Of a DNA stretch of 53,146 bases, positions 7,120 through 46,711 are shown one piece after another (within the stretch, counting starts at the first letter, position 1; each line of letters opens with the position of its first letter). The translations under genes were made by a program, and so were the position numbers. The DNA lies in contig JAZDEZ010000016.1 of NCBI GenBank assembly GCA_043808365.1, forward strand, positions 1 to 53,146. Direction: 5' to 3'. Below the pieces are notes generated by a model, which did no database searches, was not told the origin of the DNA, and saw only the letters and a program-made list of their open reading frames with translations. The stretch is from Patescibacteria group bacterium (GTDB taxonomy: Bacteria; Patescibacteriota; Patescibacteriia; UBA10025; JAHIVO01).

Positions 7120-7773
7120 TTATTTGCTACTTGCGAAGCGAACCGCAGGATCGTTGTCATGCCAGTCGTTGCCGAGCCAGCCCCAGCCCAGCACCACCTC
7201 GCCGTCGCTCACATACAGATACGGGACGAGGAGGCCGCCATCATTGCGGTTCAGCACGACCGACTTCCAGAAGTAAACGACCTTATTGCCGAATGCTTTC
7301 TTGAAAGCGGCGACCCCCAGTTTTTGAATGGCCAGGGCATCTTGCAGGTTTCCGCAGGACTCGAGCATGTTGTTCTTCTTGAGATGGTCGTAGATGACTT
7401 TGTCGGTGGTCACACCGCCGTTTTTCTGCTTATCGTGCAGCCACAGCGACACGTCCTTAGCCAAGTCATACTCGGCAAGTCCTGTGCATTCCAGCTCGGG
7501 ATGCATGACCTTGCCCACCCAGTCGGGATAAACAGGTCGGATCAAGCGGTCTACATGGACGACGGTACTGATAGAAGTTTCCTCCTTCGGTCCGGCAAGC
7601 CCCATAATCAGTTTCGTAAATCCGGTTTGGAGTTCCCAGCCACGATGCACGACACGCTGCAACTGCGCTTCATCGAGTCCACAGTCGTCAAGCGCGATCC
7701 CGCATGTTTGCCGAATGATCTCACGACCTTTCCGGCTCTCGGATGCGATCAATGTTTTTAACATCGCCATCAT
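7120..7773 (-). CDS. Putative diversity-generating retroelement (DGR) target protein with C-terminal variable region
   Basis: C-terminus NRNDGGLLVPYLYVSDGEVVLGWGWLGNDWHDNDPAVRFAS: fixed hydrophobic scaffold alternating with NNC/NNT codons, as expected from mutated AAC/AAT template codons; AAGGAGG SD. Confidence 0.65.
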   Translation of the reverse strand: MMAMLKTLIASESRKGREIIRQTCGIALDDCGLDEAQLQRVVHRGWELQTGFTKLIMGLAGPKEETSISTVVHVDRLIRPVYPDWVGKVMHPELECTGLAEYDLAKDVSLWLHDKQKNGGVTTDKVIYDHLKKNNMLESCGNLQDALAIQKLGVAAFKKAFGNKVVYFWKSVVLNRNDGGLLVPYLYVSDGEVVLGWGWLGNDWHDNDPAVRFASSK

Positions 7774-7839
7774 CCTCCTTCTTGAATTGAGGTTATTACC
7801 TGACTACCACCCTTCGACTTCGCTCAGGGTAAACTCATG

Positions 7840-7964
7840 ATAGCCCTAGCAAACAAACTCCTACATTTAAGAGCCTATTTGCTAGGGCTATTTTAGATAT
7901 ACGCAAGTAGCTGTTAAGGTACTAAATAACAGGGCATATTAGCATGGGATAGCGGTTTTGTCAA
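7840..7964 (-). promoter_or_regulatory. Sigma70 promoter and 14-bp leader inverted repeat of the 7120-7773 gene
   Basis: TTGACA (7959-7964)-17 nt-TAATAT (7936-7941); perfect IR ATAGCCCTAGCAAA (7840-7853)/TTTGCTAGGGCTAT (7878-7891). Confidence 0.7.
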
Positions 7965-8054
7965 GCCTCCGGGGAGGGCGCCAACCCTAAAAAGACGATA
8001 TTTCATCGTTTCTTTGCCCTCTGCCCGCTTGTGCCTCGCATGGCAGGCGAGTGC

Positions 8055-8394
8055 TGGCTGCGAGACCTGCCCCGCCCTACTTTAATATATTTAATTAATT
8101 GTGGCGGGGGAACCAGGATTAACGGATTCAGCCCGCCCCGCCTGCTTCGCGCATGCGCGATCCTCTTCTATTCTCCGAGGCTTGGAATCGAACCAAGATT
8201 GCATGATTCAGAGTCATGCGTCCTACCGTTAGACGACCTCGGAGAGCAGCAGAGGAATTGGTTGTTTGATATTAGTTATAATTAAGGGCGGCGAAGCGGG
8301 CCGGGGAGTCCGTCGTCCTACCATTCCCGCCCAAAGGGTGGGTCCGCCTCTGGCGGAAGACCTGCCCTGAGCGAAGTCGAAGGGCGATCTCGCA
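8055..8394 (-). pseudogene. Full-length tRNA-Gln(CTG) relic interrupted four times; the intact tRNA lies inside one insert
   Basis: Removing 8070-8109, 8132-8306, 8326-8357 and 8361-8384 gives TGCGAGA TC GTCT AATGGT AGGAC G ACGGA CTCTGAA TCCGT TAAT CCTGG TTC-----CAGG TCTCGCA G CCA. Confidence 0.85.
8173..8243 (-). tRNA. tRNA-Gln(CTG), intact
   Basis: Acceptor TCCGAGG/CCTCGGA, anticodon arm CATGA-CT CTG AA-TCATG, T-arm CTTGG TTCGATT CCAAG. Confidence 0.95.
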
Positions 8395-8430
8395 GCGCTG
8401 TGTTCAATTATCAAATAATATATCCTACAT

Positions 8431-8593
8431 TGTATGATTCAGCCTGCCCCGTCAATTTCGAACGAAGTGAGAAATTATACGGGGAGTCATGCGTCCCCGC
8501 CTCTCCGGCGGGTCGCCGATGAGGCGACTACAATTCTTCAGTCCGCCTCTGGCGGAAGACTTACCCTGAGCGAAGTCGAAGGGCGATCTCGCA
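8431..8593 (-). pseudogene. Second tRNA-Gln relic (5' two-thirds) with four palindromic inserts
   Basis: Removing 8443-8484, 8496-8527, 8536-8556 and 8560-8583 gives TGCGAGATCGTCTAATTGTAGGACGCATGACTCTGAATCATACA. Confidence 0.8.
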
Positions 8594-8606
8594 ATAAGGT
8601 CAGCCA

Positions 8607-8635
8607 ATATTACAAAGAATCCTGAAATTTATCAA
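8607..8635 (-). promoter_or_regulatory. Sigma70 promoter of the tRNA-Gln locus
   Basis: TTGATA-17 nt-TAATAT just upstream of the relic 5' end at 8593. Confidence 0.6.
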
Positions 8636-8649
8636 GTTTCTATAATCCA

Positions 8650-10218
8650 TTAATCTTTTGCCGCGGTTTCGCCAAACACCTGCATCGCCTGGTCCCACAG
8701 GCTTCCTCCCTGCTCTGTTTGATGCGCCGGTTGAAGCTTGCTGAATTCATCGCTAGGCAGCACTACAGTTGCCAGTGCCAACTTTTCTCCGAAAAGGTGT
8801 GCACAAGCATCTTCAATAATCGAACGGATTGAGCGTTCTTTCAAGCGTTCAGCGTGTAATTTATGCTGGAACGCTATGATCAGCTGGTCCTTATCAAATT
8901 TATAGGGATGGCCCATTTTAAGGGATAATCCGGCTGAATGGTTGTGCGTCCTGACTGACGTAACGAGTTCTGCCCATGCTGATTTGATGGAATCCATGCT
9001 GACTTTACCAGGAGGCTTATTGCCAGTGGCCGGTTTTGGATGCTTGGCCGGTACGTCGGGAGTCTCGATGCTTTTTTGGCCGGACGGATTACCGGGCGGC
9101 GTCCGCTTATCATCCGGACGAGCTTCCTGATCCGTACACAATTCAACAACTGCCAATTCCAGCGGCAGCTGGACAATCTGGCTGTACCGCGCATCCCGCG
9201 ACTTGGCCATGAGCTTTTCGATGATCTCAACGAGCCGACGGGCTGTTACCTGGGCAGTGAGCTCTACCACCTCTATCATGAGATCTTTCCCCATTTCCAG
9301 ATTTTCCAGCTCATCTTTTATTGAGCTGATTTTATACACCAGCGCCTTTCTAAAAAATTCAATGGCATCCTGCGAAAAATCCACAATATTAATCCCCTCG
9401 TCAACGAGGCGATTGATCACCAGGAGTCCGGCGGCCGCATCGCGGACTACCAGCGATCGGTAAAATTCCATGATCAAACTAAAGTTTGAGTGAGGGATAA
9501 TGAGTGACGACACTTCTGCCGTAATATGCTTCTCCCCGAGCGAAAGCAATTGCCCGAGGAGCACTTCGGCGTCGCGGACCGAGCCTTCGGCGCGCCGGGC
9601 GACCGAACGCAACACGTCTTCGTCCGCATCCGCCTTTTCCTCCTTGGCGATAAACCGCATGCGGGTCAGCATGTCATCGATGCGCGCGCGCTTGAAATCA
9701 AACCGTTGGCAACGGGAGATGATCGTCTCTGGCACGCGATGGATCTCCGTCGTCGCCATAATGAAGATAACGTGGTCCGGCGGTTCTTCCAGCGTTTTGA
9801 GGAGCGCATTAAACGCCGAAATAGACAGCATATGCACTTCATCGATAATAAACACTTTATACGCGAAGCGCTGCGGCGTGAAACGGGAATTTTCGATAAT
9901 ATTTTCCCTGACATTGTCCACGCCGGTATGCGAAGCGGCGTCAATCTCGATCAAATCAAGCGCCCGTCCGGCGGCAATTTCCCTGCAGGCATCGCATGTA
10001 CCGCATGGCTCGCTCTTTTTTTTATCCGTACAATTCACGGCCTTTGCCATCAGCCTGGCCATAGTCGTCTTGCCGACCCCGCGCGGACCGGAAAACAGGT
10101 ACGCATGGGCAATGCGCTTATGTTCGATCTCGTTTTGGAGCGTGACGACAATCGGCCGCTGGCCAACTACCTCAGCAAAGCGCTGCGGACGGTATTTTCT
10201 GTATATTGCCTGTGACAT
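8650..10218 (-). CDS. dnaX: DNA polymerase III subunit gamma/tau
   Basis: YRKYRP, GPRGVGKTT, Zn-binding cysteines, EIDAAS, IIDEVHML, SRCQ; start reassigned to MSQAIY at 10218. Confidence 0.96.
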   Translation of the reverse strand: MSQAIYRKYRPQRFAEVVGQRPIVVTLQNEIEHKRIAHAYLFSGPRGVGKTTMARLMAKAVNCTDKKKSEPCGTCDACREIAAGRALDLIEIDAASHTGVDNVRENIIENSRFTPQRFAYKVFIIDEVHMLSISAFNALLKTLEEPPDHVIFIMATTEIHRVPETIISRCQRFDFKRARIDDMLTRMRFIAKEEKADADEDVLRSVARRAEGSVRDAEVLLGQLLSLGEKHITAEVSSLIIPHSNFSLIMEFYRSLVVRDAAAGLLVINRLVDEGINIVDFSQDAIEFFRKALVYKISSIKDELENLEMGKDLMIEVVELTAQVTARRLVEIIEKLMAKSRDARYSQIVQLPLELAVVELCTDQEARPDDKRTPPGNPSGQKSIETPDVPAKHPKPATGNKPPGKVSMDSIKSAWAELVTSVRTHNHSAGLSLKMGHPYKFDKDQLIIAFQHKLHAERLKERSIRSIIEDACAHLFGEKLALATVVLPSDEFSKLQPAHQTEQGGSLWDQAMQVFGETAAKD

Positions 10219-10446
10219 AATGAGGCACCCTGGTAATCCTGCGCTCAGGCGCAGGAGATCCATTTATACTCATTCTCCATAGCCTAACCTCCTATCCTCC
10301 TTCACTGACTTCTTTGCTTCAATAAATGCAACAGTATGAATCCATGAAGGCAGCTTCGGAGGATTCTCTTCGCCCTAATTTATATACTCAGATGCAAACC
10401 ATTTCGGCGAAGGAGAATAAAAAATCGCCAAAATTCATGCGATTAT

Positions 10447-46287: not shown

Positions 46288-46477
46288 TAGCGCCTACCGG
46301 ATTCCCCCGCTATTAAGCGGGGTCCGCCCTCATTTGAATTAATATCGGTGGGCGGAGAACCCGAGTTTCTTGGATGACCTGCCCGCCGCAGGCCGTAAAT
46401 AGCGCGTGTGGGATTCTCCGCCAGAGGCGGACCCCGCCCTACCTTGATTTACAATATTTTTTTGTGGCGGGGGAACC
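46288..46477 (-). pseudogene. Two relic tRNA-Glu-like 3' ends, both interrupted in the T-loop
   Basis: On the + strand: TAGCGCCTACCGGATTC[46305-46356]GAACCCGAGTTTCTTGGATGA and TAGCGCGTGTGGGATTC[46417-46472]GAACC. Confidence 0.8.
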
Positions 46478-46484
46478 GATGAAA

Positions 46485-46557
46485 TAGTCCCATGGGGATT
46501 CGAACCCCAGTTTCATCCATGAGAGGGACGTGTCCTAACCAACTAGACGATGGGACC
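46485..46557 (-). tRNA. tRNA-Glu(CTC)
   Basis: Acceptor GGTCCCA/TGGGACT, anticodon arm CGTCC-CT CTC AT-GGATG, T-arm TGGGG TTCGAAT CCCCA. Confidence 0.95.
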
Positions 46558-46711
46558 ACATAACATCCCTCCTATTGTATACGAGCCAGGGGAAAAAAAT
46601 CAAGAAACAAACAGCCAACTCCCAATATATGCCGTGCATGACAGGCATTCTTCGACCAACATGTCGGTCGAATGCTGCCCTGCAAGTAAAGCCGGGGTTG
46701 GCGGTTTATGT

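Follow-up and report, generated by a model that had tools for sequence, protein, structure and literature searches.

Palindromic elements that are tolerated inside genes are known from Rickettsia, and in synthetic cleave-and-rescue or home-and-rescue drives the disruption of an essential gene is offset by a recoded rescue copy on the drive itself. The former bear no cargo, unlike the element described here, and the latter are man-made and nuclease-based. The present report concerns a 53,146-nucleotide stretch of bacterial DNA (the window, which is the whole of contig C16 of a draft genome), in which a resident tRNA-Gln(CUG) gene located after dnaX is split exactly between U33 and C34 by a 175-bp hairpin-armed cassette that contains a diverged tRNA-Gln gene with the same anticodon. 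An earlier note, made from the letters of the window alone, had recognised this nest and knew of no described element of its kind. Our full-text literature search, with supplements lying outside it, likewise retrieved no account of one tRNA gene lying inside another for the same tRNA, and no reported link of GIY-YIG enzymes or REP elements to tRNA genes in Patescibacteria.

The cassettes resemble REP/REPIN-RAYT systems in that short, GC-rich, imperfect palindromes occur in many copies, with inverted arms around a spacer, no target duplication, accompanying RAYT genes and solo intergenic copies. They depart from these systems in that a whole tRNA gene occupies the hairpin tip and lands in a loop of the cognate tRNA gene. 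Furthermore, REP palindromes are described with GTAG or CGTC tags in PMC3733652, whereas the arms observed here begin with CCTG and end with CAGG and lack such a tag, and some copies lie in frame within open reading frames (ORFs). RAYTs are presented as typically single-copy in PMC5581495; here, the RAYT-like genes are multi-copy, with up to nine matches per ~1-Mb genome in the order, and their copies are flanked by different palindrome families.

Integrase-borne islands and prophages also target tRNA genes, often in the anticodon or T loop, repair the damage and leave a partial tRNA copy behind. According to PMC9897764, which cites Williams (2002) and Reiter (1989), such islands restore the gene with element-borne sequence, and integrating elements and CRISPR are named there as the known source of tRNA fragments. 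Islands are, however, kilobases long, encode an integrase, replace only the 3' part of the gene and have direct repeats at their ends, whereas the cassettes described here measure 105-175 bp, hold neither an ORF nor direct repeats, supply a complete tRNA and leave both old halves around it. Group I introns are another host-neutral insert in the anticodon loop of bacterial tRNA genes, their neutrality being attributed to self-splicing in 10.1101/2020.01.27.920355 and PMC3984707; at the present locus no intron family was detected even at E <= 10, and neutrality is achieved through a second gene copy.

Archaeal multi-intron, split and permuted tRNA genes, whose features are given in PMC4090602, PMC4390854 and PMC4033280, share with the nest the inserts at the D-, anticodon and T-loops and the GC-rich pairing by the breaks. 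The host here is nevertheless a bacterium in which no splicing endonuclease was found, and the interrupted genes are redundant and partly broken. Finally, GIY-YIG homing endonucleases such as SegB of phage T4 lie beside tRNA genes and are tied to the duplication or replacement of tRNA regions (enzymes of the SegB type in phage tRNA clusters are treated in PMC13096335 and PMC2988022). That is a phage system without nesting, and the window's cassette contains no nuclease gene; no GIY-YIG gene lies beside the tRNA at this locus, although such genes are present at six other tRNA loci of the genome. Compared with introns, which splice out, and integrating islands, which rebuild the end of their target, the present element would offset the damage that it causes by a route new to the literature, namely a whole replacement gene inside the broken gene.

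Architecture of the nested tRNA-Gln locus

The source genome (G000) is a draft of 1.03 Mb in 24 contigs and is 88% complete. The presence of dnaX identifies the organism as a bacterium, and the relatives of this dnaX are found in genomes of Patescibacteria (the candidate phyla radiation, CPR) at no more than 52% amino-acid identity. As the conserved upstream neighbour, dnaX anchors the orthology of the tRNA-Gln locus; it is followed by tRNA-Gln in 30 of 80 related loci. Every part of the nest (8055-8394) lies on the minus strand of the window, and the features of the region, from high to low coordinates, are as follows.

8650..10263, minus strand: dnaX (DNA polymerase III gamma/tau), identified by Pfam
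8607..8635, minus strand: only promoter-like site upstream of the array (TTGATA-17-TAATAT, 9/12, consensus match only)
8420..8594, minus strand: third tRNA-Gln relic, a truncated 5' part reaching just beyond the anticodon loop
8307..8394, minus strand: 5' half (positions 1-33) of the outer, older tRNA-Gln(CUG), with two insert sites
8394-8385, minus strand: outer acceptor 5' strand
8384-8361, minus strand: insert 1, 24 nt, after G10
8360-8358, minus strand: outer piece between inserts 1 and 2
8357-8326, minus strand: insert 2, two small hairpins in the D-loop
8325-8307, minus strand: outer piece ending at U33
8306-8132, minus strand: insert 3, 175 bp, at U33^C34
8173..8243, minus strand: inner, working tRNA-Gln(CUG) (Rfam tRNA, 62.7 bits; ARAGORN bounds 8172-8244)
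8055..8131, minus strand: 3' half of the outer tRNA-Gln, from C34 to GCCA, with the T-loop hairpin
8131-8110, minus strand: outer piece from C34 to TTC of the T-loop
8109-8070, minus strand: insert 4, a 40-nt GC-clamped, AT-looped hairpin that takes the place of five T-loop nucleotides
8069-8055, minus strand: outer 3' end piece, ending in GCCA

From the outside inwards, the 175-bp insert consists of GC-rich pairing arms (8132-8150/8288-8306), an AT-rich leader, a second inverted repeat (8161-8166/8251-8256) and the inner tRNA gene. The complementarity of the arms, as claimed from the letters alone, was borne out, at 87% over 15 nt for the outer pair (8136-8150/8291-8305) and 85% over 20 nt for the inner pair that hugs the tRNA (8161-8180/8237-8256). 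What they enclose is indeed a complete and divergent tRNA-Gln(CTG), identical to the outer type at 56 of 71 positions; the differences include paired changes in its acceptor, anticodon and T stems. This inner gene has a U1-A72 pair and G73 and does not encode CCA; it is the sole intact tRNA-Gln(CTG) found by ARAGORN in the 88%-complete genome. The idea of an element that destroys an essential tRNA while bringing its replacement stands as regards disruption and replacement, but the 'essential' status is not supported; a tRNA-Gln(UUG) gene is also present in the genome.

The 175-bp insert is too short for an ORF, and its junctions share no repeat. Folded as single-stranded DNA it reaches z = -3.7, while the whole 340 nt folds concentrically into outer acceptor, outer anticodon stem, arms and inner cloverleaf (-150.1 kcal/mol, z = -6.4; 0/100 shuffles as stable). 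One of its arms matches, at 15/15 positions, the arm of three solo hairpins of ~40 nt elsewhere in the genome, and the other is a shortened version of the solo-hairpin arm. Further copies of the insert 4 hairpin lie beside other tRNA genes.

The outer gene retains fully paired acceptor (7/7, TGCGAGA/TCTCGCA) and anticodon (5/5, ACGGA/TCCGT) stems, and after the cassette it gathered three more small hairpin inserts. That taking out all four inserts gives back a tRNA-Gln(CTG) is therefore correct for the stems, as it is for the sequence of the pieces (below), but ARAGORN did not call the joined outer gene, even at a relaxed setting, because five T-loop bases are gone. These bases had been given as GAATC; they are absent as stated, but relatives read GACTC-type at this position. 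With Rfam, the region 7700-8800 yielded only tRNA at gathering scores, and a threshold of E <= 10 added no partial tRNA, intron or credible family. The third relic and the outer 5' end have a 53-nt repeat in common (8541-8593 versus 8342-8394, 96%), and in the relic, too, the U33^C34 site is occupied, here by a 42-nt hairpin (8443-8484). This hairpin is found at the same site in other genomes, with 97% identity over 62 nt in G015, which belongs to another genus, and 87% in G012.

Filled and empty sites in sister genomes

Three comparison genomes (G001, G002 and G003) belong to the same genus as G000. In G001 and G003, the uninterrupted TGCGAGA-type tRNA-Gln gene that the earlier note had suggested seeking lies directly after dnaX, at the orthologous locus. 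The five kept outer pieces are identical to this intact gene at 69/69 positions in G001 and 67/67 in G003, the 5-nt gap being the only difference, whereas the neighbouring dnaX is only 69-75% identical in DNA between the window and these genomes. The insertion at U33^C34 is a precise addition, with neither duplication nor loss of target. Since G001 and G003 carry the two relic halves as one gene, an origin of these halves in separate events is refuted. Because of these empty sites and the divergence of the inner allele, we regard the insert as a derived, precise addition of a foreign allele to a resident gene. The working gene of G002 matches the inner gene at 70/71 positions; in that genome, a relic of the older tRNA-Gln type stands beside the working gene and does not surround it. 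At the dnaX-tRNA-Gln locus of 30 distant Patescibacteria, cognate relics reached p<0.01 in just one case.

These comparisons bear on the simplest account of the array, namely an ordinary tandem tRNA duplication followed by decay, with the hairpins as later passengers and the nested look produced by rearrangement. Such a history would fit the direct repeat of 53 nt that the third relic shares with the outer 5' end, as well as the tandem units of leader and truncated tRNA upstream of the Cys, Gly-TCC and Asp genes and of the Gln gene of G021. However, the insert alone makes up the whole difference between filled and empty sister sites, the inner allele is foreign (56/71 versus the outer type) rather than a local copy, and the same arms bound cognate nests in 66 genomes, as detailed below. 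We consider this account very improbable.

Other nested tRNA genes in the same genome

The search for tRNA-carrying inserts at other loci, also proposed in the earlier note, proved productive: at least five other tRNAs are nested in this genome (Arg-CCT, Ala-CGC, Gly-GCC, Pro-TGG and Ser-TGA), and 38 canonical-arm cassettes were found in other genomes. On contig C7, excision of a single arm-bounded insert of 109 bp restores an ARAGORN-called outer tRNA-Arg(CCT) around an intact tRNA-Arg(CCT). Similarly, excision of a 108-bp arm-bounded insert together with two D-loop hairpins restores an outer tRNA-Ala(CGC) around another (ARAGORN). The outer-type Arg gene is uninterrupted in G001 and the outer-type Ala gene in G003, and the Arg nest is common to G002. 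The Gly-GCC, Pro-TGG and Ser-TGA nests were recognised by eye, that of Ser-TGA having been brought up by BLAST with tRNA genes of relatives. The same approach detected no hairpin-interrupted copy of Asn-GTT, Ile-GAT, Ser-GGA or Leu-TAG, which are missing from the draft. Blind genome-wide removal of GC-rich perfect hairpins (121 kb) followed by ARAGORN disclosed no new tRNA, this procedure being crude and the stems imperfect.

A relic census was performed by spliced alignment of the 43 intact tRNAs against their own flanks of +/-450 nt, with 1680 non-cognate pairs as the null. Cognate relics were found nearby for 17 of the 43 tRNAs at an empirical p<0.01 and for 23 at p<0.05, and the census overlooks some cases that are evident by eye.

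In G002, the inner gene of the nested tRNA-Arg(CCT) (locus L095, 1520-1660) is a mosaic that combines the inner-type acceptor and T arm with an outer-type anticodon arm, which suggests gene conversion between the shells. On contig C7, an arm-bounded insert without a tRNA (82506-82605) splits a 14-nt palindrome, GTTCCACGTGGAAC, upstream of tRNA-Ala(GGC); the insert itself carries an intact copy of GTTCCACGTGGAAC, and the palindrome is uninterrupted in G001 and G003. At a practical level, standard tRNA finders overlook the outer genes and may miscall overlapping pieces, an example being the spurious ARAGORN tRNA-Ala at C7 82785-82858, which consists of the 3' end of the inner gene, an arm and the 3' half of the outer gene.

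A class-wide family of hairpin-armed cassettes

The Arg, Ala and Gly inserts have canonical arms in common, CCTGCCCGCC...GGCAGGCGGG, with about 9 variable nucleotides on each side. The search for the exact arm pattern, with a gap of 85-115 nt, covered 22 genomes at the level of the order and a sample of 401 at that of the class, with the reversed pattern as control. It was present in 9/22 and 66/401 genomes, respectively, and the control gave no hit in any genome. Among 43 distinct inserts that were fetched, 38 hold a tRNA and five contain cargo of another kind. Once the insert is simply cut out, ARAGORN recognises an outer tRNA spanning the junction in 15 of the 38, with the same anticodon in 13; the two non-matching calls are one Pro with an 8-nt loop and one miscalled Leu-like gene. 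Taking ARAGORN calls and spliced scores (p<0.05) together, 29 of the 38 cassettes lie in a cognate gene. For the remaining nine, pieces of an outer tRNA were seen by eye in eight and in one there were none.

The junctions cluster after outer nucleotides 20-24 (the border of D-loop and D-stem), 30-39 and 54-55, and one cassette (L118) has the opposite orientation to its host gene. Independently of the cargo, the outermost 10 nt of the arms show strict conservation, and in about 13 class-wide matches (as read from the printed matches) the arms are antisense to the tRNA. In most class-wide pairs only 51-62 of ~75 nt are common to inner and outer genes, which supports a foreign origin of the inner genes. 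The design extends to a distant family, in which G239 has a canonical-arm tRNA-Gln(CTG) in the T-loop of a tRNA-Gln(CTG). The 175-bp cassette of the window belongs to a large hairpin-armed family of this class of Patescibacteria. Its members usually enclose one tRNA and are lodged in a gene for that tRNA, where they occupy the D-loop/D-stem border, the anticodon loop or the T-loop. That the arms travel with the inner tRNA, as had been supposed, holds for the class-wide tRNA cassettes but not for the inner-type tRNA of G002, which is without the arms of the window.

Arm sequences also occur outside the nests. The genome contains 65 arm-type 10-mers and about 11 solo hairpins of 20-42 nt with the same or closely similar arms, some of them intergenic; GC-rich perfect 7-bp hairpins number 741, as opposed to about 270 in shuffles. 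Solo hairpins of 30 nt with the same arms lie in frame within long ORFs at C7 37992-38021 (a 230-aa RAYT-like ORF) and C21 158215-158244 (351 aa), and in this they resemble palindromic elements tolerated within proteins.

The breadth of this family also speaks to the quality of the assembly, which could in principle have joined the tRNA-Gln alleles of two strains into a chimera. The genome is a draft of 24 contigs, public runs are without the stretch, and the contigs of G003 break in a similar Arg locus. Independent assemblies nevertheless show the same design, the closed genomes G011, G013 and G043 among them, and the junctions fall exactly at loop positions and have family-typical arms. Moreover, a 151-nt contig from a public run (X2) matches 8268-8325 with no mismatch and crosses the 8306|8307 junction, with 19 nt on one side, and so falls short of a formal bridge. 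A chimera is hardly credible in the light of these data. One 151-nt contig of a public run also hints at a strain variant. The matching contigs of public runs span no more than repeats and the tRNA, and so carry no weight as to habitat, expression or assembly.

State of the outer genes and expression

Since its T-loop is gone, the outer gene of the window is considered dead. Similarly, the outer Arg gene of G002 is altered at G18 and T54 and lacks its 3' end. Every relic is adjoined by an intact cognate gene, and in the closed genome G011 the 41 intact tRNAs cover all 20 amino acids, 11 of the 41 having relics at p<0.01. No orphan dead copy of Pro-GGG/CGG, Val-CAC, Ala-CGC or Arg-CCG was found in G011.

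A promoter of its own in the AT-rich, TATAAC-containing stretch upstream of the inner tRNA is not supported, as the promoter scan detected no promoter-like site within the 175-bp insert. With the sole promoter-like site (8635-8607, predicted from its match to the consensus) located upstream of the third relic, read-through followed by normal 5' and 3' processing is the probable source of the inner tRNA.

An entirely different possibility is that the hairpin inserts, including the tRNA-bearing one, leave the RNA as a new kind of bacterial tRNA intron, so that the outer tRNAs stay functional. The inserts do lie in loops, with precise ends and conserved arm ends, and 15 of 38 outer genes are still called as tRNAs once the insert is excised. 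The outer pieces of the window are conserved at 69/69 positions even though dnaX is about 75% identical, and in two congeners with the same Pro-CGG nest, conservation of the outer halves roughly equals that of the inner gene (108/113), whereas the flanks are at about 60-70%. These features must be set against the loss of five T-loop bases in the window and the mutated, truncated outer Arg of G002. In addition, neither a tRNA-splicing endonuclease (PF01974) nor the ligase RtcB (PF01139) had a single hit in the 88%-complete genome, the arms are antisense to the tRNA in the class-wide matches noted above, each relic has an intact cognate alongside, and the closed G011 needs none of its relics. 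Splicing of this kind appears improbable.

RAYT-like transposases and a proposed mechanism

The reading that we favour, with a probability of roughly 60%, is that of a REP/REPIN-like hairpin element with a tRNA as cargo, which disrupts and replaces the cognate gene. Candidate enzymes are at hand, as the genome has six Y1_Tnp hits, and two of three ORFs tested with the RAYT model NF047646 (NCBIfam) score 110 and 103 bits against a cut-off of 80, the third scoring 63. RAYT ORFs of the genome include those at C8 22382-22984 and C17 32247-32849. RAYT matches occur in all nine genomes of the order with canonical cassettes, as against 7 of 13 without them; the nested G000 and G002 have seven and five matches, respectively, and the clean sisters G001 and G003 none. 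Among the RAYT-like ORFs, one lies 27 nt downstream of an arm-type hairpin, another is itself split by such a hairpin and two have other palindrome families at their flanks.

In mechanistic terms, the elements are inferred to move as folded single strands via multi-copy transposases of the RAYT type (HUH/Y1). A tRNA gene would suit the hairpin tip as cargo, as its own acceptor stem would draw the two arms together, and insertion may favour the exposed loops of tRNA genes. Where a single-copy tRNA gene is struck, the hit would last only if the element supplies a working copy; the survivors would be cognate nests because only an element-borne cognate tRNA rescues the hit, and subsequent loss of the element would cost the tRNA. 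The inner tRNA would then be transcribed from the old promoter and freed by ordinary tRNA end processing. Nests may, furthermore, spread among relatives by recombination, with the conserved tRNA halves providing homology.

Several observations count against this reading. No movement of cassettes has been observed, and the link between RAYT genes and cassettes is a co-occurrence among related, non-independent genomes, several of which are incomplete. The RAYT-free genomes G015, G016 and G021 still have hairpin-laden tRNA-Gln relics, and it is mostly other palindrome families that adjoin the RAYT genes examined. No fixed target tetranucleotide, such as precedes insertions in single-strand transposition of the IS200/IS605 type, was seen at the cassette insertion sites: left flanks are enriched in ..AGA/..ATA of the D-loop without being fixed, and by eye the variable arm bases showed no correlation with those of the flanks. 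The arms of the window's insert are a diverged variant of the canonical ones, and the inner-type tRNA-Gln of G002 does without them. If selection alone shaped the pattern, cassettes would be expected within dispensable non-cognate tRNAs also, and none of the 38 is so placed. None of the public sequencing runs holds more than 0.10 of the sampled words of the stretch. Lastly, the outer pieces have acquired zero substitutions despite five indels, which calls for a very recent event or some constraint. Three explanations of this slow evolution of the outer gene are conceivable: hairpin insertion may be far faster than point mutation, nests may be remade from live genes, or constraint may be acting.

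The main rival to transposition of a REP-like element is allele replacement driven by a nuclease (homing), in which repair of an endonuclease cut in the resident tRNA gene would introduce a resistant foreign allele along with its flanks. The candidates would be the small GIY-YIG enzymes next to many tRNA genes, with nests and relics as repair scars and the cognate rule arising from homology. There are 16 GIY-YIG hits in 1 Mb, and of 15 above the Pfam cut-off six end 36-151 nt upstream of a tRNA on the same strand. In five cases (Arg-GCG, Glu-TTC, Leu-CAA, Lys-CTT and Gln-TTG), the intact tRNA is preceded by a 5' relic of itself that ends in or near a loop, with a GIY-YIG ORF directly behind the relic and then a leader. 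The inner and outer alleles differ in the stems by the break, as a cut-resistant allele would, and the locus after dnaX is fixed across the phylum while the alleles change.

At the locus in question, however, such an enzyme is lacking: contig C16 has no GIY-YIG hit, the 175 bp holds no ORF, and tblastn with 13 GIY-YIG domains found none in the 80 dnaX loci. Furthermore, arm-bounded inserts keep all target bases, whereas the GIY-YIG cases are without the middle of the outer gene. Homing accounts better for the strict cognate rule and the fixed locus, and worse for the clean junctions, the inverted cassette L118 and arm ends of 10 nt that are strictly conserved regardless of cargo; on balance we judge it unlikely. 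The loci at which these GIY-YIG ORFs (about 80-90 aa) stand between relic and intact tRNA are C3 68181-68533 (Leu-CAA), C7 2740-3260 (Arg-GCG), C21 67970-68430 (Glu-TTC), C21 163660-164050 (Lys-CTT) and C22 12900-13620 (Gln-TTG).

Two other candidates were dropped. An integrase attachment site was discarded as the core repeat is absent, and a single crossover with a circular cassette was set aside as it would yield tandem hybrids and not a nest.

The REP-like reading can be extended to a class-wide population of self-rescuing selfish elements, in which the cargo, in place of selection, would guide the search for loops of the same tRNA gene, which is then killed and replaced, resulting in a steady horizontal turnover of tRNA alleles in CPR bacteria. 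Such elements would be a natural counterpart of engineered gene drives. We regard this extension as possible but doubtful. If the REP-like reading itself holds, it would explain the tRNA debris that rings the tRNA genes of these tiny genomes, and core translation genes would often be replaced horizontally in a lineage that is thought to be streamlined. It would also tie REP-like hairpins and multi-copy RAYT transposases to the transport of cargo, and would represent a natural model of 'disrupt and rescue' inheritance logic.

Further observations

ARAGORN found no tmRNA gene in G000 or in the closed G011, and both genomes have a tRNA-Ile with the anticodon TAT. A unit of ~20 nt (CCCTTCGACTTCGCTCAGGG and its complement) repeats at 7810-7832, 8361-8384 and 8561-8584 of the window and on six other contigs. 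It sits in D-stems and T-loops of relic tRNAs and is also found at the same G10^T11 site in another genus.

Elsewhere in the window, a T-loop-like module follows an intact tRNA at 46415-46480 (minus strand), beside tRNA-Glu (46484-46558). It comprises, in order, GGTTC, an AT-looped and GC-clamped hairpin, a second small hairpin and GAATCC. The same GGTTC...GAATCC module lies 3' of tRNA-Gln(TTG) on contig C22 and also within relic Val-TAC and Ala genes. At 394-800 of the window, a tRNA-Pro(CGG) is followed by hairpins and repeated pieces that resemble 3' ends, with a cognate relic score of p = 0.02.

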